A DNA stretch of 64,000 bases. Origin: Eledone cirrhosa (taxonomy: Eukaryota). Position numbers and translations under genes: made by a program. Location: assembly GCA_964016885.1 (NCBI GenBank), contig OZ024740.1:330708001-330772000 (forward strand), read 5' to 3'. Below the pieces are notes generated by a model. It searched no databases. It was not told where the DNA came from and saw nothing but the letters and a program-made list of their open reading frames with translations. Below are positions 22,305 through 50,600 of this stretch, piece by piece (position 1 is the first letter of the stretch; every line of letters starts with the position of its first letter).

Positions 22305-25300
22305 TTCTTTTTATTAACCACATGGGTTGACATAAAGCATAACAATCGTGTAAAGAAAACAAAAATAAAACAAAGGAAATGACAAGAAAAAAAGAAACAA
22401 TGCTCAGAAACTGGACGAGTGCTTGCACGACTGGTTCTAGCCCTGCGCGCAACTCGGATAGACCCGGTTGACGGCTCTTTCATACCTGTAGAGTTTATCT
22501 CAAACTGGCAAAGCTACCCAGTAGCAATGCCAGGCCAGGGATTTGTGGAAGTTGTCCCAGGGCCTGGGTTTGAAAGTTCCCCTGAAGAGATTGGCAAGTT
22601 GATTTTCGTCGACGTCCATAATCTCCCCAACGACATCATCGCACTACCCCTCCACTAATCATTTATATAACGCCAAATTGGAGTTTCTACCGATCGCATC
22701 ACCCGGTATCCTTATTACAAGCGCTCCTTCTCGGTCTTCGTTTGAACCAGGACTGCAGTTCTGTCAAGGAGACGGGCTGGGGAAAAATACGTCTAGCAAA
22801 CGGCGACCACACCTGATATCTTCAAGGATGAGGTAGAGATGTCGTAGCCTGAGCGTATGTTTGAGCATCTTCAGTCACGGCATGGCCAGCCATCCACGTA
22901 GCTGGTGTTGACAGCAAATGAATCGCCTGACGATCCGAACGCACCCCTTTCCCAGAGGCGAAAGAGCCAACGCTCCAAAGCAGTCAGGTGAGGCTTAGGC
23001 AAGGCACGACGGTCAGCCGGTAGTAGATGACGGAAGCGCTATAAGCGATCACGACCCCGCTCGAGCTTTGAGGGACAGTTTCTTTTCGGCTGATTTCTGT
23101 GTGAGAGAGGCCACCCTCCTCGTCACCTCGTCCCAGTTTTGTCCGTCAGGAGGTCGAAACCAGGTGATTTACCTATTGTGCAGTCAGTCATTGCTACCTG
23201 TATTTCAGCGGCTGACTCACAACACCCCGCCTCTGTGACTGAGAGCCGTGGCACTCTGGCGAGGTACGCGCTAAACTGGTCCTTGGATCGGACCCACTAC
23301 TTACCACGAACAGCTGAGCGAAATGTCGCACAAAAGCCTCACACATTTGCTCGGGTTCCAGTATCATGCGCCCGTTATGGTCCACCAAAGACCAGAGCGT
23401 GACTTTGTTGCCACGACGCGCCTCCAGAACTCAGGCACTTTGAACCGCTCTCGTCCAGTTGTTTCTGAGAACACGTGCCCTAGCTCTGACAACGTCAGCG
23501 GCTCATTGTTATTTTCTAACTGGTTTTCCCTCTGCTCTATTTCTCTCTATTGCTAACGCCTTACTAAAAATAATGTACTCTGTTATAATCGGCCTTTTCA
23601 GGGTCAACCACCATTTGTTGTTGTCAATTACCTCCGTCAATGCCCGCTCAACTAATTGGCTAATCCGGTCTCTGTAGGCTATGCGCGCTATCATCGACTC
23701 ATATATCTTCCAGTAGCTGTCTCCCTGTATATAAAACCTATCTAAGTAGACCACACAGATCACGAATTTATGGTCTGTGTAGTCGACTATTTTGAATTGT
23801 GGACAACCTGTGCTAGAAATATCTATTTCCCTGCAAGATCCTGTATCTAGATACGATTTGGATGACTCGATACGGCTTGTCCATGTCTACGTTGGCACAC
23901 TCGGAAAATTCAATCTTTACCTGTCAAACAGTTGGAAACCACTGAGCAGATTTGCAAGGCTTTTCCACACTCCTTCCCTATCCCCTAATCCCACACAATC
24001 CCAGCGTGCATCCAATATCCCGTTCCAATCGCACACTAACATTAAAGAACGGCACATTCCTCGGAAGTTCTCCAGTCGCGTGAAGAAATCAAGGCATCCT
24101 GCTCCTGTCGGGGCATAAACAGCTGCTGGTCGCGTCCAGCACCACCGACTTACCTTCTAGGGCCAGGAAGATGGTCCGTATCACGAGGTCCTGGCCTCTC
24201 TGAAACAACACAGCGACTCCGCCTCCCGATCTGGGTAGGCTTAGAGATACATCGTAACAGCGAAAGATGGGTGCGAAGGCATGTGCCTCGAACATTTTGG
24301 TCTCGTTTCCATGCTTTCATGACGACTCCAGTTTATGCTGCCTATTCTGAGTAAGGTCATGTTGAAAAGGAATGGGAAAAGATGGGAAAGACCACTTACC
24401 TCACTTCTTGTATAGTAAAGACGATTTTTCGGTCCTTCAGATTGCTTGTGGCCCCCTCCGGAAGGATGTCTTTATATACCCTCTTGGAAAGTGTTTTTCG
24501 GAAATCTCCGATGCCCTTAGGGAATTTTGATATAATGTTGTATATGTTTTCTGTGAGAGACGAGTGATTTGTATGTGTGCAGTGTGTGTGAATTTATGTG
24601 GTGTTGTATAGTTTAAGTCTGTGATGCTGGTGTTGTGTTGGATGTACTGTAATAATTGATTATTATAAGTTTAATGCTACGTAGTGTTTCGCTTTGGCTG
24701 CTTTGTTTTGTTTGCGTTTGTTGTAGGTTTGTTTCTGGTTCGCTTGTTGGTGTTTTTGTGGTGTTGGGGATCGGGGTGTTGAGGTTGATGATGGCGATGG
24801 CGCTCGTGATGCTAGTGCGGGTGGTGGCTAAGCTGTTTTAACTTTCTTGTTTCTTATTTTGTTTCGCCCTCTATTTCCTGTTTGGAGGGCGAAGGAAGAT
24901 GTATTTTTCTTTTTTGGTTTCTTTTTTTCCAAGATACAGTTTCCCACCCCTCTTCCTCGTCACAATCCGTCCCAGTCGTGAGAGGTCGGGGAGTGGAATT
25001 TCCGCTACAGGCATTGGCTTTCGTTGTGTGTGGTGGATGGTGGAGTCGCTGGTCATACTTCTGAGTGGTGGGAGCTGATGTTGTTGGTCTTGCTACTGTT
25101 GCTGCTACAGTTGCAACCGTCGTGGCTGCTGCAGTTGCCGCTGCAATTTATGCTACTGGTTTTGAAGGCTGAGCCACTGGGGTGGGTAGGAGAGGTGGCC
25201 GGGCAGAAGGCCCTTAGGTGGGCTCCCTCGCCACAAACGACACACCTACACCTTCTGCCTTCAACGATTACGGTGAGGTGGCTGCCGTCATTGAGGTCTA

Positions 25301-26532: not shown

Positions 26533-27274
26533 AGGATACAGAAGGAATGCTAATGGCTGCGCAGAGGCAGGCCCTCAAAACGAAGTGGTTGAAGCACCAT
26601 ATCTACAAGGAGGAGGCTAGCCCACTGTGCAGGATCTGTGGAGAGAGAGAGGAGACTGTGGCTCACATTGTGTCCGAGTGTAAACACCTAGCCCAGACCC
26701 ACTATAAGGGCTGGAGACACGATGTGATGGGCAGGGTGATCCACTGGCACCTGTGCAAAGTAAACAATCTACCACATTCTGAGAAATGGTATGAGCATAG
26801 GCCAGAGGCGGTGATGGAGAACAGTCAGGTGAAGGTGCTGTGGGATTTTAGGATACAGACGGACAAAAAACTGGAACACAATAGACCTGACCTGGTAGTT
26901 GTGGACAAAGAAAAAAGATCGTGCCTGATTGTGGATGTGGCCTGCCCGTTCGACACGAGAGTGCAAGAGAAGGAGAGGGAGAAAATTAACCGATACCAGG
27001 ACCTAAAGTGGGAGGTGAAAAGGATTTGGAACTGCCATGAAGTCAAAGTGATCCCGATTGTCATAGGCGCACTGGGGACTATCTCCAAAGGTTTCCAGGG
27101 ATGGTTAAAGAAAATCGGCCCCTTCACGCTTTTTGGAACGCTTCAAAAGGCATGCTTGCTTGGAACGGCAAGAACCCTCCGATACGTCCTGAATATCTGA
27201 GGCTGCAGGTAGTGGCTTGATATTCAATCCAACGGACTTTCCAGTTAACCAACATCAATGACTGAGATTCAAGG
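26533..27274 (+). mobile_element. R4/Dong-like RLE retrotransposon family 1, 5'-truncated copy
   Basis: ORF 26547-27200 has CRICGEREETVAHIVSEC (CCHC), RHD, RPDLVVVD, VDVACPFD and KINRYQDL (PD-D/ExK nuclease). Short 3' UTR, then (AAT)n. Confidence 0.92.
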
Positions 27275-27286
27275 AATAACAATAAC

Positions 27287-27330
<44 letters not shown>

Positions 27331-27331
<1 letters not shown>

Positions 27332-28409
27332 GGAAGCTATTGACTATCTACAACATGTTCCACAAGAGGAGTGATGTCGATAGACTCTACCTAAGGAGAT
27401 CTGAGGGTGGAAGAGGTCTTATCAGCATAGAGGACTGTGTTCAGATGGAGAAAAACAACCTATACAAATACGTGACCTATAGTAAGGAGCCAATGCTCAG
27501 AACTGTACTGAAGGAGGGGACAGTAGGCCAGGGGATGTCCAAGGAGGAAATAACATCAAGGAGGAAGAGCAGCCTTAAGGGAAAATCCCTTCATAGTACC
27601 TTCTTTGAGAAAACTGAATTTAGAGATCCACAGACATGGAACTGGTTGAGAAGAGGAGACCTCAAAAAGGCTACAGAAGGAATGCTAATGGCTGCGCAGG
27701 AGCAGGCCCTCAAAACGAAGTGGTTGAAGCATCATATCTACAAGGAGGAGGCTAGCCCACTGTGCAGGATCTGTGGAGAGAGAGAGGAGACTGTGGCTCA
27801 CATTGTATCCGAGTGTAAACACCTAGCCCAGACCCACTATAAGGGCTGGAGACACGATGTGATGGGCAGGGTGATCCACTGGCACCTGTGCAAAGTAAAC
27901 AATTTACCACATTCTGAGAAATGGTATGAGCATAGGCCAGAGGCGGTGATGGAGAACAATCAGGTGAAGGTGCTGTGGGATTTTAGGATACAGACGGACA
28001 AAAAACTGGAACACAATAGACCTGACCTGGTGGTTGTGGACAAAGAAAAAAGAACGTGTCTGATTGTGGATGTGGCCTGCCCGTTCGACACGAGAGTGCA
28101 AGAGAAGGAGAGGGAGAAAATTAACCGATACCAGGACCTAAAGTGGGAGGTGAAAAGGATTTGGAACTGCCATGAAGTCAAAGTGATCCCGATTGTGATA
28201 GGCGCACTGGGGACTATCTACAAAAGTTTCCAGGGATGGTTAAAGAAAATCGGCCCCTTCACGCTTTTTGGAACGCTTCAAAAGGCATGCTTGCTTGGAA
28301 CAGCAAGAACCCTCCGATACGTCCTGAATATCTGAGGCTGCAGGTAGTGGCTTGATATTCAATCCAACGGACTTTCCAGTTAACCAACATCATTGACTGA
28401 GATTCAAGG
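27331..28409 (+). mobile_element. R4/Dong-like RLE retrotransposon family 1, 5'-truncated copy with open frame
   Basis: ORF 27340-28335 (331 aa): RLYLRRSEGGRGL, CCHC knuckle, RLE nuclease. Nearly identical to the copy at 26533. Confidence 0.93.
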
Positions 28410-28441
28410 AATAACAACAACAATAATAATAATAATAATAA

Positions 28442-28962
28442 AAAGTTCACATCTCAATCTTGTGGAACTTTAGCATCCAAACAGACCGAAAAATAGATGC
28501 AAACAGGCCTAATATAATATTGAAAGACTTTCAAAAGAGGGTATGCCTGCTAATTGATATGTCTGTTCCAATAGACAAGAATGTATCTATAAAAACATTT
28601 GAAAAATTGAGCAAGTATAAGGATCTGGAGATAGAAATTGGAAAAATGTGGAAATTGAGAACTAAAACAATACCAGTGGTTGTAGGCGCTCTGGGAATGA
28701 TACCTAAGGGGTCTAATGATTACATATCGCAAATCCCAGGAAACCCGCGTATAGGAGAAATACAAAAGATAGTATTAATGGGAACTGCCCATATACTAAG
28801 GAAGATTCTGTCAATATAAGTACATCACAAGTCTAAACGCTAAAGATTTATGTGTGAATATGTATGTTCTTTCTTGAACATGGCGGACCTTGTTGTCTCT
28901 TGAGGTCACTGGTTGTGACTTGGTGATAACTCGTATGAACATAAAGCAAGATAAATGCAACT

Positions 28963-29009: not shown

Positions 29010-29259
29010 GATTTCTTTATTAACCACAAGGGTTTACATAAAGTAGACATTAAGGACAGTGCAGGACAATGCAGGACGGTACAAATGGGCATTTCTGCGT
29101 GTAAAAAACAAAAACAGAGGATGTTACAAAAAATAACAATGAAAAATTCCCCAATAGGGGGGAGACTTCGGAGGGACATTTGTGGAGAAAGCCCAGTAAA
29201 AAGCCACAATGACCCTGACCACCAAGGCACGTGCCCTCTCCCAGTTTTCCACCTTTAAT

Positions 29260-32200
29260 TTACAGATATATGCTCAGAGTAGGCCCATTCACTCGGGCCA
29301 TTCTTGCTTCTCTCACCCATCTTTCAACAAAATGCTGGGAAGAGAGTACTTCCCTCTCTACTCTGATTTTCCTTTTCAAATGAAATTTGAAAAAGTCAAT
29401 CAGAGCATCACCGAAGAGGTAAGTGCTCGTCTTCAGCCCTTTCAAACGTGTCCACCATACTATCACTTTCGCCATGGCCACCAGGCAGATAAAAACTGCC
29501 TGCCCTTCCCGGCTAAAGGAGGAGGGCGGGGCAATCCTCACGATGGACTCAGATGATAGCCGGATCCGTCCTAAACGCGACAGCAGGTGTTCGACATAAA
29601 CCCACAAGTCAGCAATTTTCGGACACTGGACGAGTGCGTGCAGGACGGTTTCGTCGCCCTGCGCGCATCTCGGACATGCCCGGCTGACGGCACCTCCATG
29701 CCTGTAGAGTTTATCCCGAACTGGCAAGGCTCCTCGGTAGCACTGCCAGGCCAGAGATTTCTGGAAGTTGTCCATAGGCCCTGGCCCGAAAGTTCTTCCG
29801 AAGAGATTGGCTAGTTGATTTTCGTCGACGCCTAGAGTTTCCCCCAAGTACGTCGTCGCTCTTCCCCTCCACTAATCCTCTATAGAACGCCGAGGTGGAG
29901 TTTCCACCGATCACATTGCCCGATTGGTCGAGGGCTGTGAGCGCCTGAAGACATTCCAGTCTCTAGGCGCTCCCTCTCGGTCTTCGCTTGACCCAGGACT
30001 GCAGCTCCGTCAAGGAAACGAGCTGGGGAAACACGCGTCTAGCAAACGGCGACCACACCTGATCACCGTCGAGGAAGAGGTGGAGATGTCGTAGCCTGAG
30101 CGCGTGCCTGCGCATCATCAGCCACGGCATGCCCAGCCCTCCACGTAGCGGGTGTTGACAACAGATGGACCGCCTGACCATCGGAGCGCGTCCCTTCCAC
30201 AAAAAGCGAAAGAGCAAACGCTCCAGCACAGTCAGGCGAGGCTTAGGACAAGGTACGACGGTCAGGCGGTAGCAGATGACGGACGCGATGTACGCGTTAG
30301 CCACCTCCGCTCGACCTTTCAGGGATAGCTTCCTCGGCCCATTTCTGGGTGAGAGAAGCCACCCTGCTCGTCACCTCGTCCCAGTTTTTGTCCGTCTGGA
30401 GGTCCGGACCGAACCAGACCCCTAGCAATTTAACTGGTCCGTCCGTCCAGCGTCCGACGACGCTGTTGGACGGCATGGACCTGCCTCTCCAGGTGCCGAG
30501 CTGCAGGCCCACTGACTTTTCCTGGTTGATCATTGCTCCTGTCACCGCTTCGTATTCTCTTAGTGTAGTGCCGATCGCCTCGATGTGTTTGGCGTTCGAC
30601 ACCACTACGGTGACATCGTCCGCATATGCTGATACGGATCTTCCGCATCCTAGTTCGCGCGGGACCCCCCTCAACGTCTCCAGTTTGTGCAGTAATGGCC
30701 CGAGAGTCAATACGTACAAGAGGGACGAGAGGGGACATCCTTGGCGGACCGAGCGCATGATGTTGAACGGTTCCGACAGGTGACCGTTCACTCTCACCAC
30801 AGAGCAGATGTCGCTGTGCATGGCAGCGATCCAGCCTCTGAAGACGGGCCCAAAGCCAGCCGCCCTCAGGACTGCCGCTAGGTAACGATGGTCGACCCTA
30901 TCGAAAGCTTTCGACTGATCTAAATTGATCAAGGACCCACCCGTGCCAGGTTCCCTAGCTACCCTCTCTACGATGTATCGCATGAGGTGGAGGTTGTCGT
31001 GGATGGATCTGTCGGGAATGGCGCATGTCTGCGCCTCTCCCACCAGACCACCAACGACAAGCGCCAACCTCTTTGCTAGCACCTTGGCCCAAATCTTAAA
31101 CTCTGTGTTTAGCAGAGTTATGGGCCAGAAATTTTCTATGTTATCCCCCTTGTTCGGATCCTTTCTCAGCAGTGCCACCGCTCCTCGGCTCACAGAACTG
31201 GGAATTCTCCCGTTCTGTTGCCAGTTGCAGTAGACGTCCGCCAAGAGGCCTCCGAACAAGTCTGGCATCTGTACGTAAAGTTCATAGGGCAGACCATCCA
31301 AACCAGGCGATTTACCCCTTGTGCAGCCAGTCATTGCCTCCCTTACTTCAGCGGCTGTTATCGGCTTTTCGCAACACTTCGCCTCAGTGGCCGAGAGCCG
31401 CGGCAGTCCGTCGAGGTAGACACTAAAGTCCATCCCTCTACCCGGCCCACCGCTGCCCCCGAACAGCTGAGCGAAGTGTCGCTGAAAAGCTTCACACATT
31501 TGCCCGGGATCGAGTAGCATGCGCCCGTCGTGGTCCACCAAAGACCGGATCGTGGCTTTGTTGCCACGACGCGCCTCCGCCACTCGGGCCCATTGAACGG
31601 CTTTCGTCCCCTCGTGTCTGAGAGCACGCACCATTGCTCTGACAACGCAGCCTTCGTGCTTTGCATTGAAGAATTGGTCAAGGGGCAATTTCGCCGCAAG
31701 CACGTCGGTCGCAATGCCTTTGCTAAGCGCCTCGTCTAATTTTCTAACTAGTTCTCCCTCTGCTCTATTTTTCTCTATTGCTAAAGCCTTACTAAATCTA
31801 ATCGATTCTATTCTAATCGCTCTTTTCAGAGCAAACCACCACTTGTTGTTGACGATGGCCCCCGTCAACGCCCGCTTAACTAGTTCGCTAATCCGGTCTC
31901 TGTAGGCCTTGCGCGCTGGTAAGGACGCGTTTAGCTTCCAGTAGCCGGGTCCTCGTCTATGAAGCCTATCTAAGTCAAGCACACAGATCACGAATGTGTG
32001 GTCTGTGTAGCTGACTATCTTGAATTGTGGACAGCCTATGCTAGACCTATCTATTTCCCTACAAAATACTCTATCTAGATATGATCTGGATGACCCTATG
32101 CGGTTTGTCCAAGTCCACATTGGCACATTCGGGAAATCCAATCGGTACCTGTCAGACAGTTCAAAACGCCTGAGCAGGTTGGTGAGGCTCTTGCACCCTC

Positions 32201-32678
32201 CACCCCTATCCGCTAATCCCACACAGTCCCAGCGTACATCTAAGATCCCGTTCCAGTCGCCCACTAACACTAAAGAGCGCGACGTTCCAAGAAAGGTCTC
32301 CAGACGCCGGAAGAAATCAGGCCGCCCTGCTCCTGTCGGGGCATAGACGGCCACTAGCCTGAAAGCTTGCCCGTCTCCGCTGGTCACGTCCAGCACCACC
32401 AGCTTACCCTCTGGGTCCAGGAAGATGGCCCGTATGGCGAGATCCAAACCTCTCCGAAAAAGTACAGCAACTCCTCCACCGGATCCAGGACGGCTGGGAG
32501 ATGCGTACACATCGTAGCCGCCGAAGATCGGTGCGAAGGCCCGTGCTTCGGAGATTCTGGTCTCGCTGATGGCCACTACATCTATGTTTAGTGACCTGAG
32601 GTCGTTGAGCAGGTGACCCTGCTTCCAAGACGACCCCAAGCCACGCGCATTTATGCTGCCTATTCTGAGTGAGGTCAT
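29260..32678 (-). pseudogene. Element B ORF2: APE endonuclease, reverse transcriptase, CCHC finger (few disruptions)
   Basis: SINARGL, AISET, GDWN, LDR, TDH, GPGYWKLN, KSPGLDG, DQSKAFD, VRQGCPLS, YADD, CPRC..ETVLHALVQC. Frameshifts near 30330 and 29845, stop at 29963. Confidence 0.92.
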
Positions 32679-32713
32679 GTTTAAAATAGAGTGAAAAAGA
32701 TGGGAAAGACCAC

Positions 32714-34809
32714 TTACCGTACTTTTGGTAGAGGAGGGATGGTTTTTACATCCCTTTTCACTTGATCGTCTGGTGAAGGGACCGTTGAATCGTCCCTTCG
32801 GCTGGTCGTCGGCTCTTCTAAGAGAATGTCTGAGTATACTCTTCGATTGATGGTTCCTCCTAGGTCCCTGAAATCACCAACTGTGTTGGGGAATTTCGTT
32901 TTAATATTTGTGTATTGTTTCTGTGCTATTTTTAGCAGTCTTATGTTAGTTGGCGTTTTGATTGGTGCTGGTATTATGTAGTCCTGTTGTGAAATGTCTG
33001 TGTGTTCAATTATGTAAGTCATTAGTTTCTTGTTGTGTGTATTTATTGCCGTGCATTTGTTTTTCTGGGGGTGGGGTGTGGTTCTGCTATTTTCTTGTCG
33101 TTGTTGCTGGGTGTGTGTGTTTTGTTGTTGTGTTTGCGATGTTGGTGCTTGTGGTGGTGGTGTTGAAGGTGTTGTTGGCGGTGGGGTTGTCGCCGGTGGT
33201 GATGGTGGCGCTAGTGTGGGTGGTGATGGTGTTGGTGTTGTTGCTGCTGTGGGTCTCTTTGCAGTAGACTTTACCCTTTTCTCATTTCTTTCCTCCCTTT
33301 TCAAAGGCGACGATGCGCTGCTTCTGCGTTTGTGCCTTCTTACGACCTTTTGCCATCTCTCTCCCACCTCACACTCCATGTCTGATTCTGTGAGGTCGGG
33401 GAGGGGTACCAACTCCACTCTTTCACTTGTTGTTGTTGGTGATGTTTGCACTGGAGTCTCTGTTGCAGCTGCATTTGGTATTGCTGTTGTTGTTGTTAGT
33501 ATTTCCACTGCTGCTGCTGTTTTTGATTTCCGTGGAGTGGGTATGGGTGCCACGGGCCTATCGTTCCTGGTTGCCGCTTGTCCTGTTGCTGGTAGCCGTG
33601 GAGCCGGATTCGGAAGGAGGGGGGTTTTCTCCTTTCTCAGGGTCTTCTCGTTGCAGAAGGCCCTGAGGTGAGTCTTCGATCCACAGCGAAAGCATTTCGG
33701 GCGTTTGCCCTCAACACTTATGGGCAGTTGAGTGCCGTTATCGAAGTCTATCACATCCGGGATAGCTTCGATGCACTCCTGGTTGGTTTGGATTAGCATC
33801 TCAATGGAGGAGCCGACCCAATCTTCTCTTACTTTTTTCTGTACTTGCAGTACAGTTGTTTTGTCCTCGATTCCGACGAGGACAGACGCGGCCAGCCAAG
33901 AAGGGGTCATTCCGGGGGGGACGTGGGTCAGTTTGACCCTCACAATTTTTTGCCCACAGTAGGAGGGCACCAACACCATTTCCTCGCTCCTTAGGGTCAC
34001 TACTGATTGGGCCTTTGCCTCCTGGGGTGTGGCAAAAAGTACGTCTACGGTGGCATATTTTTTGCCTCGGGTGATGTGCGTTTTCCGCTGCCACACAGAC
34101 CCCAAGGCTTTTTGTATTTGGGCCTCTGTGGCTCTTTCCACCCTACGGGATTTTGTACTTACTGTACGGTACGTGACCGTACAGTGCTCTTGGGTTTCGA
34201 AAACATTTTTCGCTGCCTTGCAGATTGCTCGGTGTCCGTTGTTTGTCACCATCTTCTTCGCTTCCTCTAATTCCTCATTTGTTATGAGGATTGTTTCCAA
34301 GTTTTTCGCAATACCTGCAAATGAGATTGGTTTTTCTCTGCTGTTGTTGTTGTCGTCAGAGCTGCTGGTACTTTTGTTGTTGCTGCTGGTACTACGACTA
34401 CTGCCTCCGCCGCTGTTGCTGTGGTTGTTGTTGGTGTTGCTGCTGCTAATGCTGTTGTTGTTTATGCTGCTGGTGATGCTGTTGGGCTGCTACTGTTGTT
34501 TTCATTGTCACTGTTGCTGTTGTTATTACGGCTGCTACTGCTATTATTCCTGACGTCAGACGAATGAACTGGGTTTTCGTATTTCCCGCACACCTGTTTC
34601 GTAGCTGTCGTCGTCGTCGTGGAGAAACCTTGCACGCTTTGCACGAGACTTTTCTTTTCTTTCGTCACTTGCGAAAGAGAAGGGAGGGAGAGAGACACAT
34701 TTAAAGAAGGGAGGGAGAGAGACAATCTTCTCTCTGCTGTAGTGATGATTGAGGAAGAAGAAGACGGAATGAGTGGGAGTGACGTATGAAATTTCTTTTT
34801 CGTAGCCAT
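32714..34809 (-). pseudogene. Element B ORF1 (zinc-knuckle nucleic-acid-binding protein), one apparent frameshift near 34480
   Basis: ORF 32714-34300 has CFRCGSKTHLRAFC (CX2CX4HX4C) and a Pro/Thr-rich tail. The frame extends upstream through an Asn/Ser-rich tract and SFAGIAK. The ATG at 34809 is one frame off. Confidence 0.85.
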
Positions 34810-35024
34810 GTTGTTTTTTGTTTAAAATGAAATTTTGGGTACAAAACCCCAATAACTGATTATTTAACCCCGAAGGGCCAAATAACGGACAGAAAGACCC
34901 CTCTCACGAGGAGGAGGGTGTCTTTATCAACAATTTGGTTCAAGTTTTAAACAATTTACAATTGTTTTAACAGTTAAAAATTACTATACCTTACAGAGCC
35001 GAGCCTCCGTCAACCATGGCATTC

Positions 35025-37165: not shown

Positions 37166-40100
37166 ATGTCGAACCTAAACAGTTCGAATAACGGTGAAAT
37201 GGAGACTAGAATGTCATGTGACAGACTCTCACCCAACAGCTGCTCCCTGGCTCAGCAGCAAGGACCTGGCTGTCAACCAAATACTGCTGGTGTCGGAGCA
37301 AGAAGAAGAAGGAAATGGACCAGAACCAACTGGACGAAAGAATTGAATAGAACTGTTATCCAATGTTACCTGAAGAGTAACCCCAAGGAGAAAGGCTATA
37401 GGAAAAGGATGCATAACATCTGGAACGTGATTGGTCCATTTAAATTAGATGAACAAAAACTGACCGGGCAGGCTCGAGTAATAAGAACTAATGGGTAGAT
37501 AAGCGAGCTGGAACTGGAGGAACTGAGCAGAGAGATTTAGGCTGGAAATGGAGAGTAGAGTATGCCAGGCAAACGAGCCAGTGGGAAATGAAGGTGAAGA
37601 GGTCGAGAGAACGGAGGAACCACCCGAAGCAGACAATGATCTGAATGCTGAGATAAATAATACCTGGAACAGAGATACGGCCACTGAGGAGATAAATGCT
37701 GACGGGCTAGGACACGATTTGGTTGATATCCTAAACTTAGTGGTAGATGAATTGAACAACGATAGTGGGAGACTTATGAACCTAAGATTTGTAGAGAGGA
37801 AAAAGTTAAAAGAAACAACAGCTATGGTAAACAAAGTCATCCCATACATTGAGGCGAGGAGCCTTCACCAGTGCAACAATATCCTCAAAGTAACAGCAAA
37901 TACGGTGAGGAAACTACTTGGTATAAAAGCGAGAGGAAACAACAGACAAGAAAGAGCTGAACCTTGGTGGAAGAAACGACTGAGTGGTCAAATCAGGGAA
38001 ATGAGAAATGACATTGGAAAGCTTGAGTCCCTACTGAATGGGACACTAAAAAACATAGACACTAAAAATAGACTGGAAATAAAGTACAAAACTAGGAGGA
38101 AAAAGGTAAATATTATCATAGAGGAACTGTAGCAACGATTGAAGCAAAGAGTGCAAAAATCAGGCGATACGAGAACAGAGTCAGTCAGTATAGACAGAAC
38201 CGCATGTTCGACAGCAACCAGAAGATGCTGTTTGGACAGCTTGAAGGAAAAGAAAGAGGCAACGACTTGATCCCTGAGTCGGAACAAACTAAAACATTCT
38301 GGAGAGGAATATGGGAGCAGGATGTTAGACATAATGACCAGGCAGTGTGGATTGAAACAGTACAGAAGGAGATCAGTGAACAGGCACACCAACAAACTGA
38401 TTTGAGTATCACAGTTGAAACTCTTAAGGGGCAGGCCAAAAAACTAACCAACTGGAAATCACCTGGCCCAGATGGTGTGCAGGGGTATTGGATTAAAAAC
38501 ATAACATCCCTCCACCCGAAACTGACAACCATGTTCAATGACTGCTTGATGTCAGGTGAGGTAGCAGAGTGGTTGACAAAAGGTACCATAGTTCTGGTAA
38601 TGAAAGATCAAATCAAGGGTAATGATGTTACCAACTATAGACCTATCACATGTCTGCTCGTAATGTTGAAACTGTTGACAAGCATTGTGTCTGAGGAAAT
38701 CTACCATCACCTCCACACAAACAACTTGTTACCGGACGAACAGAAAGGATGCCGAAAGAAGTCACGTGGTACAAAGGACCAGTTACTTATTGATAAAATG
38801 GTAATGAGGAATTGCCATGGGATGGATAGACTACAAAAAGGCATTTGACGTGGTGCCTCATTCTTGGATCACCAAAAGCCTGGAGATCTTCAAGGTGGCA
38901 GATAACATCAGACAGTTGTTGGGCAAAAGTATGAAGTCCTGGGAAACAGAGTTAACATCAACTGGAGAATTCTTGGGAAGCGTGAAGATCAAGAGAGGTA
39001 TCTTCCAGGGAGATAGTCTGTCCCCTCTGTTGTTTGTCCTTACCCTGATGCCCCTGATCAGTGTACTGCGAAAAGTGAGAGCAGGATACAGGTTGGGAAA
39101 GGGAGGGCTTACCATCAATCACCTCCTCTTCGTGGACGATCTTAAGCTCTTCGGGAAGAGTGAGAAAGAGTTGGATGTGCTTCTTGACACTGTCCGTATT
39201 TTCAGCAATTTGGTATTAGTAAGTGTGGAGTCATTGTGATGAAGAGGGGTATGTTGAGCAGAAGTAACGGAATCCAGGTACCAACGGGAGAGATGATAAA
39301 GGAAATTGACTCTGAAGAAGGATACAAGTATTTGGGCGTTCTGGAGGCTGATGACATCAAGAACAAAAAAATGAAGGAATTGATAAGAACTGAATACATT
39401 CGGAGAGTAAGGAGCGTATTAAAATCACATCTGAACAGTAGGAATGCCATAAGTGCAGTCAATTCCCGAGATGTGTCCATTATTAGGTAGAGTGCGGGAA
39501 TTCTGAGATGGAATGTTGCTGAACAAAAAGAAATGGATAGGAAGACTAGGAAGCTATTGAATATATACAACATGTTCCACAATAGGCGTGATGTCGATAG
39601 ACTCTACTTAAGGAGATCTGAAGATGGAAGAGGTATTATCAGCATAGAGGACTGTGTTCAGATGGAGAAACACAACCTACTCAAATACGTGACTGATAGT
39701 AAGGAGCCAATGCTCAGAATTGTACTGAAGGAGAGGACAATAGACCAGGGAATGTCCAAGGAGGAAATAACAACAAGGAGAAAGAACAGCCTTCATGAAA
39801 AATCCCTTCATAGTACCTTCTTTGAGAAAACTGAATTCAGAGATCCACAGACATGGAACTGGTTGAAAAGAGGAGACCTTAAAAAGGCTACAGAAGGAAT
39901 GCTAATGGCTGTGCAAGAGTAGGCCCTCAAAACGAAGTGGTTGAAACACCATATTTACAAGGAGGAGGCTAGCCCACTGTGCAGGATCTGTTGAGAGGGA
40001 GAGGAGACTGTGGCTCACATTGTATCCGAGTGTAAACACCTAGCCCATACTCACTATAAGGGTTGGAGACATGATGTGATGGGCAGGGTGATCCACTGGC

Positions 40101-40549
40101 ACCCATGAAAGTAAACAATTTACCACATTCTGAGAAGTGGTATGTGCATAAGCTAGAGTCGGTGATAGAAAACGATCAGGTGAAGGTGCTGTGGGATTTT
40201 AGGATACAGACGGACAAGAAACTAGGACACAATAGACCTGACCTGGTGGTTTTGGACAAGGAAAGAAGATCGTGCCTGATTGTGGATGTGGCCTGCCCAT
40301 TCGACACGAGAGTGCAAGAGAAGGAGAGAGAGAAAATTAACCGATACCTGACTTAAAGTGGGAGGTAAAAAGGATTTGGAACTGCCATGAAGTCAAAATG
40401 GTCCCTATTGTCATAGGTGCACTAGGTACTATCTTAAACAGTTTCCAGGGATGGTTAAAGAAAATTGGCCCAGCCCCGCTTTTTGGAACACTTCAAAAGG
40501 CATGCTTGCTGGAACAGCAAGAACTCTCCGATACGTCCTAAATATCTGA
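37166..40549 (+). pseudogene. R4/Dong-like ORF: N-terminal Myb-like region, RT, CCHC, RLE nuclease
   Basis: RRKWT..WTKELN..CY..GYRKRMHNIW; PWWKKRL; NWKSPGPDG; YRPITCL; WIDYKKAFDVVPHSW; GIFQGDSLSPLLF; HLLFVDDLKL; YKYLG; RPDLV. Several stops and frameshifts. Confidence 0.92.
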
Positions 40550-40870
40550 GGCTGCAGGTAATGGCTTGCTATTCATTTCAACAAACTTTCCAGTTAACTA
40601 ACATCAATGACTGAGACTCAAATAATGTTTTCTTTATTAACCACAAGGGTTTACATAAAGTAGACATTAAGGACAGTACAGGACAATACAGGACGGTACA
40701 AATGGGCATTTCTGCGTGTAAAAAAAACAGAGGATGAAATAAAATAACAAAGAAAAATTCCCCAATAGGGGGGAGACTTCCGAGGGACATTTGTGGAGAA
40801 AGCCCATTAAAAGACCACAGTGGCCCTGACCACCAGGGCAAGTGCCCTCTCCCAGTTTTCCACCTTTAAT

Positions 40871-43800
40871 TTACAGACACATACTCAGAGAAGGCCCATT
40901 CATTCGGGCCATACTTGCTTCTCTCACCCATCTTTCAACAAAATGCTGGGAAGAGAGCACTTCCCTCTCTACCCTGATTTTCCTTTTCAGATGAAATTTG
41001 AGAAAGTTAATCAGGGCATCACCGAAGAGGTAAGTGCTCGTCTTCAGCCCTTTCAAACGTGTCCACCATACTATCTCTTTCGCCATGGCCACCAGACAGA
41101 TAAAAACTGCCTGCCCTTCGCGGCTAAAGGAAGAGGGTGGGGCAATCCTCACGATGGACTCAGCTGATAGCTGGATCCGTCCTACACGTGACAGCAGGTA
41201 TTCGACATAAACCCACAAGTCAGCAATGCTCGGACACTGGACGAGTGCGTGCAGGACGGTTTCGTCGCCCTGTGCGCATCTCGGACATGCCCGGCTGACG
41301 GCACCTCCATGCCTGTAAAGTTTATCCCGAACTGGCAAAGCACCCCGGTAGCACTGCCAGGCCAGGGATTTCTGGAATTTGTACATAGGCCCCGGCCCGA
41401 AAGTCCTTCCGAAGAGATTGGCTATTTGATTTTCGTCGGCGCCTAGAGTTTCTCCAAGTACGTCGTCGCTCTTCCCCTCCACTAATCCCCTATAGAACGC
41501 CAAGGTGGAGTTTCCACCGATCACATTGCCCGATTGGTCGAGGGCTGTGAGCGCCTGAAGACATTCCAGTCTCCAAGCGCTCCCTCTCGGTCTTCGCTTG
41601 ACCCAGGACTGCAGCTCCGTCAAGGAGACGAGCTGGGGAAAAACGTTTCTAGCAAACGGCGACCACACCTGATCACCGTCGAGGAAGAGGTGGAGATGTC
41701 GTAGCCTGAGCGCGTGTCTGCGCATCATTGCCACGGCATGCCCAGCCCTCCACGTAGCGGGTGTTGACAGCAGATGGACCGCCTGACCATCGGAGCGCGT
41801 CCCTTCCACAAGAAGCGAAACAGCAAACGCTCCAGCGCCGTCAGGCGGGGCTTAGGACAAGGTACGACGGTCAGGCGGTAGTAGATGACGGACGCGATGT
41901 ACGCGTTAGCCACCTCTGCTCGACCTTTCATGGATAACTTCCTCTCGGCCCATTTCTGGGTGAAAGAAGCCACCCTGCTCGTCACCTCGTCCCAGTATTT
42001 GTCTGTCTGGAGGTCTGGACCGAACCAGACCCCTAGCAATTTAACCGGTCCGTCCGTCCAGCTCCCGACGACGCTGTTGGACGGCATGGACCTGCCTCTC
42101 CAGGTGCCGAGCTGCAGGCCCACTGACTTTTCCTGGTTGATCATTGCTCCTGTCACCGCTTCGTATTCTCTTAGTGTAGTGCCGATCGCCTCGATGTGTT
42201 TGGCGTTCGACACCACTACGGTGACATCGTCGGCATATGCTGACACGGATCTTCCGCATCCTAGTTCGCGCGGGACCTCCCTCAACGTCTCCAGTTTGTG
42301 CAGTAATGGCTCGAGAGTCAATACGTACAATAGGGACGAGAGGGGACATCTTTGGCGGACCGAGCGCATGATGTTGAACGGTTCCGAAAGGTGACCGTTC
42401 ACTCTCACTACAGAGCAGATGTCGCTGTGCATGGCCGCGATCCAGCCTCTGAAGACGGGCCTAAAGCCAGCCGCCCTCAGGACTGCCGCTAGGTAACGAT
42501 GGTCGATCCTATCGAAGGCTTTCGACTGATCTAAATTGATCAAAGACCCACCCGTGCCAGGTTCCCTAGCTACCCTCTCTACGATGTATCGCATGAGGTG
42601 GAGGTTGTCGTGGATGGATCTGTCGGGAATGGCGCATGTCTGTGCCTCTCCCACCAGACCACCAACGACTAGCGCCAACCTCTTTCCTAGCACCTTGGCC
42701 AAAATGTTGAACTCTGTGTTTAGTAGAGTTATGGGCCTAAAATTATCTATGTTATCCCCCTTGTTCGGATCCTTTCTCAGCAGCGCCACCTCTCCTCGGC
42801 TCACACAGCTGGGAATTCTCCCGTTCTGTTGCCAGTTGCAGTAGACGTCCGCCAAGAGGCCTCCGAACAAGTTTGGCATTTGTACGTAAAGTTCATAGGG
42901 CAGACCATCCAAACCAGGCGATTTACCCCTTGTACAACTAGTCATTGCATCCCGTACTTCAGCGGTTGTTATCGGCTTTTCGCAACAATCCGCCTCAGTG
43001 GCCGAAAGCCGCGGGAGTCCGTCGAGGTAGACATTAAAGTCCATCCCTCCCTCCGGCCCGCCACTGCCCCCGAACAGTTGAGCGAAGTGTCGCTGAAAAG
43101 CTTCACACATTTGCCCGTGATCGAGTAGCATGCGCCCGTCGTGGTCCACCAAAGACCGGATCGTGGCTCTGTTGCCACGACGCGCCTCCACCACTCGGGC
43201 CCATTGAACGGCTTTCGTCCCCTCGTGTCTGAGAGCACGCACCCTAGCTCTGACAACGCAGCCTTCGTGCTTTGCATTGAAGAATTGGTCAAGGGCCAAT
43301 TTCGCCGCAAGTACGTCGGTAGCGATGCCTTTGCTAAGCGCCTCATCTAATTTTCTAACTAATTCTCCCTCTGCTCTATTTTTCTCTATTGCTAAAGTCT
43401 TACTAAACCTAATGGACTCTATTCTAATTGCTCTTTTCAGAGCAAACCACCACTTGTTGTTGACGATGGCCCCCGTCAACGCCCGCTTAACTAGTTCGCT
43501 AATCCGGTCTCTGTAAGCCTTGCGCGCTGGTAAGGACGCGTTTAGGTTCCAGTAGCCGGGTCCTCGTCTATGAAGCCTATCTAAGTCAAGCACACAGATC
43601 ACGAATTTGTGGTCCGTGTAGCTGACTATCTTGATTTGTGGACAGCCTATGCTAGACCTATCTATTTCCCTACAAAATACTCTATCTAGATATGATCTGG
43701 ATGACCCTATGCAATTTGTCCAAGTCCACATTGGTACATTCGGGATATCCATTCGGTACCTGTCAGACAGTTCAAAACGTCTGAGCAGGTTGGTGAGACT

Positions 43801-44289: not shown

Positions 44290-44323
44290 GTCTAAAAGGA
44301 GTGGAAAAGATGGGAAAGACCAC

Positions 44324-46150
44324 TTACCTTACTTCTCGTACGGGAAGGACGGTTTTTCCATCCTTTTCACTGCTTGTGGCCTCCTCAGGAAGGATGTCCT
44401 TATAAATCCTCCTGGAGAGTGCTTGTCGGAAGTCTCCGATGTCTTTTGGGAATTTTTGTTTTAGTGTCATGTACGTTTCCTGTGTGATGCGAGTGATTTG
44501 TATGTGTGGAGGTGGTGTGAATTTTGGGGTTGTTGTGTAGTCTTTTTCTGTGATGCTGGTGTTGTGTTGGATGTAGTGTAATAATTGCTTGTTGTTCAAA
44601 TTTAATGCTGTGTAGTGTGTATCGTTTTGGTTGTTTTGTTTTGTTTGCGTTTGTTGTGGGTTTGTTTCTGTTTCGCTTTTTGGTGACTTTTGTGGTGTAG
44701 GTGATGGTGGTGTTGGGGTTAATGATGGTGATGGTGTTGGTGTTTGGGTTGATCGGGTTGGTGATGCTGGTGTGGATGGTGGTATATCTGTCCTAACTTT
44801 TTTGTTTCTTAGTTTATTTGTTTCCCTCTGTATTTTGTTTTTGGAGGGGCAAGGAAGAGAATTTTTTCTTTTTTGGTTTCTTTTTTTTTTCCGGATATCG
44901 TTTCCCACTCCTCGTCGTCACAATCTGTCTCCAGTTGTGATAGGCCGGGGAGTGGAAAATCCTCCACAGGCGTTAGTTTTTGTTGTGGCGTGGTGGATGG
45001 TGTAGGCGCCGGTGCTAGTTCTGAAGCGTTGAGTGGTGGTGGTGTTGGTTTTGCTGGTGGTGGTGGGGGTATTGGTTTTGCTACTGTTGCTGGGGTTGTT
45101 GCTGTTATAGTTGCGTCTGTTGTTGCTGCTACAGTTGTTGCTGCCATCACTGCTACTTGTGGTGTTGATGGTTGTGTCACTGGGGTGGGGAGGAGAGGTG
45201 GCCTCAACCTTTTAGCCTGAGGGCAGAAAGCCCTTAGGTGGGTTCCTTCACCACAAACGACACACCTAGGTCTTCTGCCCTCGACAATTACCGTGAGGTG
45301 GCTGCCGTCAGTGAGGTCTATTACCTCTGGGATCTCCTCAATGCTTTTTTGGTCCGCTTGGATCAGAAGCTCCGGACCAGTTCTCCTGCTTTTCTTTTGC
45401 TATTGCTATTATTTTTGTGTTGGCTTCGATGCCGGCGAGGACGGCCGCTATTAGCCAGGGAATTTCGATGGCCGGTGGAACGTGGGTCACCCTGATCTTT
45501 ACGAGTCTCTGGCCACAATAGCTTGGGACGTGTGTGAAGTCGTCACTTCTTAATGGGGCCATGGAGTGTTCTCTAGCCTCCTCTGGTGTTTCAAAGAACA
45601 CATCCACGGTTCCATACTTCTGCCCACGTCTGATGTGGGTTTTTCTTGCCCACACATGTCCCAAAGCTTTTTGGATTTGGGACTCGGATGCCCGTTCCAC
45701 TCGGCGCGATTTTACATTTATTGTTCGATACGACACGGTGCATAGGCGCCGATGCTCCATTTTATTAGGTGGGGGGGGGGGCTGACCCTGTACCCATCTT
45801 TCTTTACCAATTGTTTGGCATTTTCTAAATCCTCCTGAGTTACCGTAAATGCTTCGAACTGTTTTGCTACTCTGGCGAAACTGAGGGTCGATTTTATAAT
45901 GTCATTGTTGTTGTTGTTGCTATCGTTATTTGTGTTAATATTAATTTTAGTTTCAGTTGTGGTGGTGGTGACATCAGTCGTCTTTGGTGGGGAAGAGTCC
46001 ATTTTGCTTGATTTCATTTCGACATCACGAGTTAATTTATTTTTTTCTTCTTTTGTTTCTGTTGTCACGGTGGTGGTGGGGGTGGTGGTTGTCGCGGTGG
46101 TGGTGGTGGTGGAGGCTTTCAGCTGCTTGGTTCAGAGGTGAATTAGCCAT
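44324..46150 (-). pseudogene. Element D ORF1, frameshifted
   Basis: Pieces LSFARVAK, CTVSYRTINVKSRRVERA, PSYCGQRLV, a knuckle region at ~45225-45265, a Pro/Thr tail and RRIYKDIL..VREVR*. The start position is approximate. Confidence 0.8.
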
Positions 46151-47610: not shown

Positions 47611-50600
47611 GATTTCAGTTATTGGCCACAAGGGCCGACATATAGTGGAAAATACAAAAGACTGGGACAGTGGGGTTTTACAGAAAAATCGAGTAAACAA
47701 TATAAATAACAATAACAAAGTAACAATAAAGTAATAATAACATTACAACAAGAAAAATTCCACAATAGGGGGGATGACCACCTAGGGTTCGCTCAGGTAC
47801 CCCACTTGTCCTGAACCAATCGACGCTTCGAGAGCACCCTGGAAGGGCACTCCTCTCCTCCTCAAATTTACCTACCTACAGCCGCATGACCAGAGTATGC
47901 CCACTCACATGGGCCATTCGCCCTACATTCACCCACCTTTCAGCAAATGTAATGGGGGCAGCACTTCTCTCTCCACCCTCACCATCCTTTCTAAGTCAAA
48001 CTTGAAAAAGTTGATGAGGGATTGGCCGAAGAGAAAAGTATCTGTCTTCAGTCCTTTCAACCTCGTCCACCATACAACCTCTTTCGCTACTGCCACCAGA
48101 CAGAGGAAAATTGCCTGCTCTTCCTGGCCAAAGGAAGGCGGCGAGTCGATCTTCACTATGGTCTCGGCCGATAGCGGGATCAGTTCTACACGCTACAGCA
48201 GCTGTTCATCATAACTCCACAAGTCACTAATACACGTACACTGGACGAGTGCATGCAGAACGGTTTCGTCGCTCTGCGCGCATCTCGGACAGGTTCGTCT
48301 GACAGCACTTCGGTGCCTGTAGAGTTTATCTCGAACCGGCAGTGCCCCTCGGTAGCTCTGCCAAGCGAGGGATTTTTGGAAATTATCCATCGTCCCCGGC
48401 TCGAAAGTCCTCCGGTACAGACTGGTTAGTTCGACTTCGTTGACTCTCAGAGCCTCTCCGAGTGCGTCGTCGCACTTGCCCACCACAAATCCTCTATAGA
48501 ACTCGAGAGTGGAAGTTCCACTGACCGCATTGCCCGCCTGGTAGAGGGAAGTGAGGGCCTGGCAAAATTACAGATGCCAGTCACCCAGTCTAGGTCTCTT
48601 CTTGACCTAGGACTGCAGCTCAGTCAAAGAAACGAGCTGCGGAAAGGCCCGTCTGACAAACGGCGACCACACCTGTTCACCGTTTAGGCAGAATATCTGG
48701 AGATGCCGAAAGCTTCAGCGCGTGTCTGCGCATCATTAGCCACGGCATGCCCAGCCCTCCACCTAGAGAGGAGAGCTGGCAGCAGATGAACTGCTTCACC
48801 AGCGGAACCTAACCCCTCCACAAGAATTTGAAGAAGAGTCGCTCCAAGATGGCGAGGAGCGAACGGGGGCAAGGGACGACGGTCAGACGGTAGTAGATGA
48901 CGGACGCGATGTACGCGTTCGCCACCTCCGCCCGACCTTTCAGTGATAGCTTCATCCCAGCCCATTTCTGGGTGAGACTGGCTACTCTGCCCGTCACCTC
49001 GTCCCAATTCTTATCCACCTGGAGGTCTGGCCCGAACCAAACCCCTAGCAACTTTACTGGTCCGTCCGTCCAGCGCCTAACGACGCTGTTGGACGGCATG
49101 GACTTGCCCCTCCAGGTGCCGAGTTGCAAGCCCACCGACTTTTCCGGGTTAAGTTTTGCTCCCGTCAACCTTTCATATTCCTCCAATAAGTTGCCGACCA
49201 CCTCGATTTCTGAGGTGTCCGACACCATCACGGTGATGTCGTCCGCATAAACCGACACAGCTTTTCCGCGTCTCGGTTCGAGCGGGATGCCCTGCAACAG
49301 CTCCAGCTTCCGCAATAAAGGCTCGAGAGTCAATACGTACAGAAGGGAGGTGAGAGGGCACCCTTGACGGACCGATCGGGAGACCTGAAACGGTTCCGAG
49401 AGGTGGCCCTTAATTATGACCATCGAGCAGGTGCCGCTGTGCATTGCAGCGACCCAGCTTCTGAAGACGGGGCCGAAGCCAGCCGCTTTGAGGACAGCCT
49501 CCAGGTACCGATGGTCGACCCTATCGAATGCTTTCGATTGATCTAAATTGATTAGAGTCCCACCAAAGCCAGGTTTACACCCTACCCTCTCTATGATGTA
49601 TCGCATTAGGTGGAGGTTGTCGTGTATAGACCCGGTTGGGATTGCGCAAGTTTGCGCCTCCCCACCAAATCCCTGACGAAAAGCGCCAACCTCTTCGTTA
49701 ACACCCTGGCCAAAATCTTAAACTCTTAAAGCTCGTAGGGCAGACCCTCCAAACTGGGTGACTTGCGCCTCATGCAGCCGACAAGGGCATCCTGAATCTC
49801 GGCTGAAGTAATTGGCATTTCGCAGCGCCCAGCGTCAGCCGTCGAGAGTTGCGGCAAGCCATCGAGGTAGGGACTGAAGTCCGCCACCATCTCTGACCCG
49901 TCACTTCCCCGAACAACCGAGCAAAATGTTGGCGAAAAGCCTCACACTTCCGCTTGGAATGTCCGTCTCGGTCCGTCAAAGACCGAATCGTGGTTTTATT
50001 ACCACGCTGCGCCTCTGCCACGCGTCCCATCGAACAGCCTTGGGTCCCTCATATCTCAGAGCACGCGCCTTAGCTCTGACAATGCAACCTTCGTGTTTCG
50101 CATTGAAGAAATGGTCTAATGCCATTCTCGCCGCTAGCACGTCAGTTGCAATGCCACTACCAATAGCCTCGTCTAACCTATCTACCAACTCTCCCTCCTT
50201 TCTATTTTTGTCTAACGCTACTTCTTTGCTAAATTCTATCGACATTACTCTAATCTCTCTGTTGAGAGCCCCCCACCATTCTATTGTTGACGACTCCCCC
50301 TGTCAACTTTTTCCTAACTAAATTGTTGACTTGGTCCCTGTAAGCCTTACGTGCCGGAAATGACATGTTTAGCTTCCAGTAACCAGGTCCTAACCTACGC
50401 ATCTTATCTAGGTCGACCATACAGATCACAAACTTGTGATCTGAATAGGCGACCGTTTCAAAACGTGGACAGCTTACATTATTTCTGTCTATTTTCCTAA
50501 TGAATATCATGTCTATATACGATCTAGATGATCTTATGCTGTTATTCCAGGTCCACACTGGTGCATTAGGGACATCTAGTCGGTACCTGTCAGCCAGTTG

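Follow-up and report, generated by a model that had tools for sequence, protein, structure and literature searches.

A splice-donor motif conserved where ORF1 ends, and a predicted long-range RNA helix, in a LINE group of Eledone cirrhosa

Why does the stop codon of the first reading frame of a LINE lie inside a perfect splice-donor motif? The question was raised by a 64-kb stretch of the Eledone cirrhosa genome (330,708,001-330,772,000; hereafter the window), in which LINE copies are arrayed at 22,400-56,200, all on the minus strand and with (ATT)n between copies. The host genome searched amounted to 3.0 Gb. ORF2 of the element encodes an APE endonuclease (PF03372) and a reverse transcriptase (RT; PF00078), both above the cut-off in the two ORF2s tested; its nearest named relative comes from Argonauta hians (56% identical), while the closest database relative carries a C-terminal zf-RVT domain (PF13966). 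ORF1 is separate and lies upstream. In the copy termed B, it forms a 591-codon frame from which a CxxC-x4-H-x4-C knuckle was read directly, and no Pfam family scored above the cut-off for it; a search of the 64-kb window for Rfam families was likewise negative. The 3' ends adjoin lineage-specific microsatellites in most copies compared. From its architecture, the element is probably a Tx1-type LINE (L1 group). Lineages are denoted by letters of our own, derived from clustering 194 of 219 loci, the other 25 having no anchor or being duplicated.

In copy B, ORF1 spans 32714-34809 of the minus strand (likely start at 34809, open from 34489 to 32714, one frameshift near 34484), and ORF2, with both enzymatic domains, spans 29260-32678 (open to 30297 and frameshifted beyond). 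A poly(A)-signal hexamer at 29016-29021 (-) marks the 3' end of the element and is followed by the (ATT)n repeat. Such (ATT)n tracts were seen in B, D, G, J, and F, (TCTA)n-like repeats in I, N, and P, (TCTG)n in one M copy, and an AT-rich satellite in H. Copies stand about 6 kb apart in head-to-tail arrays (window 28964-56240; 3' ends in L264-L283), and, as contigs of runs X5 and X6 show, the last ~93 nt of the element (29012-29104) are tandemly repeated in some copies. Nested in the array, at 26533-28444 and 39548-40621, are pieces of a different repeated element on the plus strand; its copies are 91-98% identical and carry ORFs of 221 and 334 codons.

The initial annotation had placed GTAAGT at the end of ORF1 in four copies, and all four positions were correct: the donors, taken as the 5' splice-site consensus from -3 to +6, lie at 32712-32720 (B), 44322-44330 (D), 24394-24402 (the decayed copy A), and 51150-51158 (F), all on the minus strand, with the ATG of ORF2 38 to 40 nt downstream. 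In B, the TAA at +2 to +4 indeed ends the 591-codon frame, and the same holds for D, whose donor is in phase 2, and, by homology, for A. Copy F, listed as a divergent member, does contain the motif, but the TAA inside it is not the ORF1 stop. In 30 copies of this lineage, ORF1 is open for up to 407 codons in phase 1 compared with at most 80 in phase 2; because the open frame is a different one, the F donor is in phase 1, and the stop occupies +6 to +8. Lineage G resembles F in this respect (phase 1, stop at +6). The four sites count as only two independent observations, since ORF2 identity between the B and D lineages is 99% and the junction of A is the same as theirs. The hexamer alone is common, with 27 occurrences in the window, both strands counted together. 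An antisense GTAAGT in good donor context is found near the ORF2 end of every B/D-type copy (plus strand, 29419, 35523, 41030, 46737, and 53760); its sense-strand sequence mimics the 5' end of U1 and could also pair with the donor. A weaker donor-like site is present at 34980-34990, near the 5' end of the B 5' UTR. The apparent stop-free donor variant GTATGT (L131) turned out to be a single-copy change, two of four copies having GTAAGT, one GTATGT, and one a deletion.

The reading put forward first was that a 53-nt intron fuses ORF1 to ORF2. The first AG after the B donor does end at 32665, 53 nt away and in the donor's phase; it lies in the Arg5 codon of ORF2 (32665-32666, minus strand) and showed no sign of use. 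Its reported absence from D was confirmed and is private to the copy in the window, nearly all of the 100 junctions listed out of 4,574 in the family retaining it. A spliced RNA with an intact ORF2 should leave genomic copies, because a LINE copies its own RNA; in human L1, spliced copies make up about 2% of full-length insertions according to the available text of one study (PMC5860796). However, no copy lacking exactly these 53 nt was found, against 4,574 with an intact gap between the same two anchors, and the one copy with a short gap keeps GTAAGT and is an ordinary deletion. Copies with another base after the donor exon (48 + 13 in B/D, 8 + 2 in F, and 5 + 7 in H/I) were all point changes or deletions away from the junction, in searches that covered next exons other than those starting with G-x-A (B/D) or x-T-A (F, H, and I).

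Nor is the acceptor conserved. The donor-to-ATG distance varies from 25 to 53 nt across lineages, and the spacer sequence has changed freely too. Donor and AG match in phase in B, D, O, and, for the second AG, F; H, I, and M present an AAG as their first AG, only 39-42 nt from the donor, N has a CGA codon at the acceptor place and no phase-matched AG, and the first CAG of G is out of frame. A rule that the first YAG is always in frame holds for B/D and F and fails in G, I, M, and P. Stop read-through or A-to-I recoding into ORF2 was also rejected, as the distance from stop to ATG is a multiple of three only in H and I among the lineages checked. Lineage J (L160, L169, and other copies) has the look of a 47-nt, out-of-frame intron, with a donor, a branch-like motif, a pyrimidine tract, and a TAG placed 5 nt ahead of the ORF2 start; among the 100 copies listed, those of J type were all unspliced. 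Older F-like copies (L132, L140, and L153) contain a TAG in the spacer.

More distant acceptors were considered as well. An acceptor-like site, a pyrimidine tract with CAG, lies in the 3' UTR (29095-29125, minus strand), only in the B/D/G/J group among the copies examined; lineages H, I, K, M, N, P, and F do not have it, so it cannot serve as a universal acceptor. At +79 to +83 of ORF2 (32596-32600), all 12 lineages compared share the same DNA letters in Leu-Arg-Ser codons, which contain an acceptor-like CAG; a splice into this site would cost the endonuclease its first strand, and no copy spliced there was found in B/D, F, H, or I. In contigs of five runs of unrecorded kind, which are not evidence on expression, neither the 9 joints listed nor 15 of 355 further ones lay at the donor, and single contigs of X3, X4, and X6 (again of unrecorded kind) cross it unspliced.

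The donor itself behaved differently. Thirteen lineages were compared, with ORF2 identities of 61-99%, four-fold sites 42-64% identical between distant groups, and a tree length of 2.76 at four-fold sites; lineage Q, having no usable ORF2, was left out. The majority base is present in 12 or 13 of the 13 lineages at -2, -1, +1, +2, +3, +5, and +6, and +4 is always A or G, so that the consensus is kept from -2 to +6 while the sequence differs at once outside it (6 of 13 at -3, 8 of 13 at +7, and 4 of 13 at +8). The T at +12 and +13 is nearly as well kept (11 and 10 of 13). A fourteenth lineage, R, also carries the donor, and F and G have retained it although their ORF1 stop has moved to +6. At the columns free of protein constraint, the neutral chance of such conservation was 0.03-0.11 for +1, 0.09-0.28 for +5, and 0.13-0.24 for +6, giving a joint value of about 0.0003-0.007 as the product of single-column values under a tree model without recombination, an assumption that the chimeric lineages described below contradict. 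The initial annotation had counted, among the findings that would together refute its proposal, a GTAAGT kept no better than the neighbouring spacer bases; within one family this is indeed the case, in conservation rows anchored on motifs ending at +1, but across lineages, whose family majorities were obtained independently, the motif is conserved above chance. Matches of at least 8/9 to the donor consensus occur about once per 5.7 kb elsewhere in the elements (25 in 143 kb) versus 12 of 12 full elements at the ORF1 end, the consensus being the general U2-type one and not derived from introns of the E. cirrhosa genome, and the window copy of D being left out for want of an anchor. In 11 of 12 elements, moreover, no other site on the sense strand scores higher for pairing with U1. 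Among 40 metagenome loci of distant Tx1-like elements (24-31% identity), eight were excluded because the match stopped short of the ORF2 start, and none of the remaining 32 reached 8/9, whether at the stop of ORF1 or up to 90 nt from ORF2; the donor is therefore a trait of this LINE group. Taken on sequence comparison, these data indicate that the donor consensus is under selection. Of the two readings offered initially, splicing-controlled ORF2 expression and a U1-binding site, the second is thus the better one in that the donor is conserved with sharp edges; the binding itself is a prediction.

The pyrimidine-rich spacer, taken initially as a splicing tract, is better explained as one arm of a predicted helix. 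In B, the 5' arm is the ORF1-ORF2 spacer (32679-32711, minus strand), and the 3' arm, placed by arithmetic from a partner span of -4 to +39 of the stop, covers the ORF2 stop (29262-29260) and the first ~40 nt of the 3' UTR (29223-29266, minus strand). In general, the partner extends from -5 to about +40-55 of the ORF2 stop, 3.4 kb downstream, so that the first 40-55 nt after the stop would pair with the spacer. Predicted duplexes with the partner arms of D (40840-40878, minus strand; -45.8 kcal/mol, next best -33.6) and F (47833-47882, minus strand; -44.5 kcal/mol, next best -35.6) were the best in their elements; when 13 whole elements were scanned, the region of the ORF2 stop came out as top partner in only six. 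Forty elements entered a shuffle test (13 of 40 fetched copies were unusable); in 29 at most five of 100 shuffles were as stable, and in 11 more than five were, the helix being weak in J, in O, and in a single copy of P. At least 60% of the spacer paired to the 3' end in 23 of 26 cofolds, in a constant register, with the inner end joining ORF2 start and ORF2 stop and the outer end containing the ORF1 tail and donor; the best-kept end pairs the ORF2 start context with that of its stop.

When arms were swapped between lineages in a 14 x 14 matrix, own pairs were 10.2 kcal/mol better than row and column effects predict (none of 100,000 permutations reached this), and for seven distant groups, the own pairing was the best of all 5,040 orders, with -0.3 and -1.8 in control windows. 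The arms have changed together: G and its variant G2 differ in both, K combines a long spacer with a long purine run, and M a short spacer with a short run. Spacer and 3' UTR start are thus complementary in a lineage-matched way beyond base composition, weakly so in J, O, and I, the last of which ranks its own 3' end 10th of 14 in the matrix. With the 3' end present, the computed cost of opening the donor rose from 5.5 to 8.0 kcal/mol, an increase in 13 of 14 cases, while its mean unpaired probability barely shifted (0.36 to 0.33). Pairing does not explain the donor consensus, because the flanks vary with their partners while the donor stays, and +2 to +4 are looped out in I, M, and F. A hairpin local to the 3' UTR (~29185-29250 and homologues), in which changes between lineages are matched, shares sequence with the donor-pairing arm; because of this overlap, the two folds may compete, possibly as a two-state switch.

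Signs of donor use came from two chimeric ORF1s. In B, the sequence matches G up to the last base before G's own donor, and from there on matches D, starting with the base after a CAG that lies 44 nt upstream of the D donor; the B-D similarity ends at the same join (32760/32761, minus strand), and a one-base insertion after it returned the stop to the donor. Independently, two of 18 copies fuse the R ORF1, exactly at its donor, to an I tail that begins after a CAG 20 nt upstream of the I donor. No further joins were present among 100 of 683 G-type ORF1 ends listed. Both would be accounted for by splicing of read-through RNA across array neighbours followed by retrotransposition, and in our best reading of these sequences, the joins are probably the footprint of occasional splicing. 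Since only a two-nucleotide AG is shared at either join, template switching by the reverse transcriptase at or near the helix base is the alternative. Other mosaics were noted: in J, a distinct spacer precedes an ORF2 that is 97-98% identical to that of B/D, and one J copy has a D-like 3' UTR (L283, L279, and L305), so modules have been exchanged often.

What, then, might the donor be for? One answer is that it is routinely spliced, with ORF2 removed, to yield an ORF1-only mRNA resembling the Gag mRNA of Copia elements, the helix setting the ratio. The acceptor would be the AG of the ORF2 stop, the 3' UTR site, or an early ORF2 site combined with early termination. The two exact joins imply donor use, the available text on EVD provides a precedent (PMC5580714), and few genomic copies would be expected, because such an RNA could not copy itself. 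The ORF2 stop is TAG in most lineages, and a join there would, as judged by eye, restore a stop no more than two codons on in H, K, P, F, G, G2, and one form of I, but not in M, N, J, O, and the other forms of I; B and D, which have TAA, possess the strong 3' UTR acceptor, yet no acceptor is both strong and universal. All 12 lineages compared preserve both the CAG at +83 and a TAG at +415, which is unexceptional, given that the third base is likewise unchanged in 11 of 38 invariant Leu/Arg columns. Moreover, an ORF1-only RNA with the whole 3' UTR should occasionally be copied in trans, and none was found in B/D, H/I, or F within the joins covered. We regard this answer as possible, though rather doubtful. 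It can, by analogy with the published part of the EVD work (PMC5580714), coexist with docking of U1.

An unlikely answer is that the helix serves translation, limiting or coupling reinitiation at ORF2, and that the donor look arises from an Arg codon, a stop, and a good termination context. The best-kept helix end, which brings ORF2 start and stop contexts together, would suit such a device, as would the regained stop of B, and ORF2 stops too are often G-stop-GT; however, the silent invariant G at +1 and T at +6, the retention of the donor in F and G with the stop elsewhere, and the joins exactly at the donor are left unexplained. A translational role of the helix alone is possibly compatible with either U1 docking or ORF1-only splicing. 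That a single ancestral Arg-stop-GT happened to resemble a donor and drift has yet to erase it is very improbable. A single origin agrees with absence from all the distant relatives, and 14 of 56 four-fold columns are also invariant, but the conservation edges are sharp, the joint neutral chance is below 1%, and the adjoining spacer was free to change in length and sequence. As for removal of a 52-53-nt intron to give an ORF1-ORF2 fusion protein, the phase matches in B, D, O, and F speak for it; the complete lack of spliced copies, together with the failure of G, H, I, M, and N to offer an acceptor at a usable distance and in frame, leaves it hardly any credence. Evasion of HUSH-type silencing was discarded, as HUSH protection is independent of the splicing machinery according to the accessible part of PMC7619638.

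The explanation that we consider best, while giving it slightly less than an even chance, is that the conserved donor binds U1 snRNP on the nascent RNA and that the predicted helix masks it once the end of ORF2 has been transcribed. While ORF2 is being transcribed, the partner arm would be absent and U1 would sit on the donor, a natural window that we infer because the arm arises only 3.4 kb later. The docked U1 would hold off early cleavage and polyadenylation. When the polymerase has passed the ORF2 stop, the helix would close over ORF1 tail, donor, spacer, and ORF2 start and displace U1, and the full-length RNA could then be ended, exported, and copied unspliced, masking having spared it splicing and nuclear retention. 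Leak splicing between neighbouring elements of an array would have swapped ORF1 between lineages and founded the B family. Precedents exist in the available text of two papers: HIV-1 and foamy-virus donors suppress polyadenylation, with structure blocking U1 at the 3' LTR, and in HIV-1 the signal suppressed lies 195 nt upstream of the donor (PMC3694450), while RNA with exposed 5' splice-site motifs is held back in the nucleus (PMC6199362). ORF1 contains several poly(A)-like hexamers, and 11 of 12 elements, all but K, have one in the 500 nt that precede ORF2; a hexamer upstream of the donor repeats the geometry of the HIV-1 donor and its upstream poly(A) signal, as given in the same portion of PMC3694450. 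On the other hand, ORF2 contains at most one such hexamer, and this scarcity of signals to protect against, like the case of K, is a point against the U1 reading. No poly(A) site early in ORF2 is conserved in the lineage alignment. The 5.5 kcal/mol that local structure alone is computed to impose on donor opening is a point against masking, and the G at +5 may also reflect stop-codon context. In a bolder form, about which we are doubtful, the arrangement would act as a completeness switch: the U1 site would stay open until the ORF2 stop is transcribed, the helix would then shut the donor, only full-length RNAs would escape splicing or nuclear retention, and leak splicing would shuffle ORF1 in tandem arrays and so have made a family that ranks among the most abundant in the genome.

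The type of element is not new. As described in the available text of two papers, Tx1-clade (L1 group) LINEs include the microsatellite-targeting Kibi at (TC)n, Koshi at (TTC)n, and crocodilian Tx1 (PMC4494074), and Octopus vulgaris has L1-Tx1 families (PMC13282606). The E. cirrhosa LINE shares with this clade two ORFs, APE endonuclease and RT, arrays, and 3' ends abutting simple repeats (the zf-RVT being seen in its closest database relative) but differs from those descriptions in having a donor at the ORF1 stop and a predicted spacer-3' UTR helix; its repeats, (ATT)n in B/D/G/J/F and (TCTA)n-like in I, N, and P, are also other than theirs. The accessible portions of PMC3894237, PMC7140322, PMC11203168, and PMC12129022 contain nothing on such an ORF1-ORF2 junction. 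U1 control of this kind is described in the consulted text for retroviruses (PMC3694450) and Copia elements (PMC5580714), and our searches, which lay outside most subscription papers and Repbase reports, found no literature report of it in a non-LTR element, nor the combination of donor and helix in print for a LINE.

The closest likeness is to Arabidopsis Ty1/Copia EVD, where, in the part of PMC5580714 available, a conserved U1 site likewise ends the structural ORF and U1 blocks early termination of the full-length RNA. EVD, however, is an LTR element with a defined short intron and a demonstrated spliced gag mRNA, whereas the E. cirrhosa LINE is not known to have a fixed acceptor or a spliced RNA, and its donor is predicted to be paired at long range. 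At the major donors of foamy virus and HIV-1, U1 suppresses polyadenylation, and foamy-virus RNA structure blocks U1 and thereby allows 3' end formation, as far as the available text of PMC3694450 goes; there, the context is an LTR, the structure is local, and the donors are also spliced normally, unlike a predicted 3.4-kb helix that could form only after ORF2 is made. Human L1 (SpIREs), in the accessible text of PMC5860796, has a functional donor that is rarely used, possibly because structure hides it, and its spliced copies reach the genome. The donor of L1, however, is a 5' UTR site whose spliced copies (about 2%) are dead ends, whereas here the donor overlaps the ORF1 end, no within-element spliced copies were found, and a cross-element join founded an abundant family.

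These findings bear on two open questions, namely what keeps the long, intron-less RNAs of LINEs whole and by what route ORF1 is exchanged. A selected candidate U1 site and a covarying predicted helix make both questions testable by point and compensatory mutants, as do two ORF1 swaps, dated in sequence, with breakpoints that fit splice junctions exactly.
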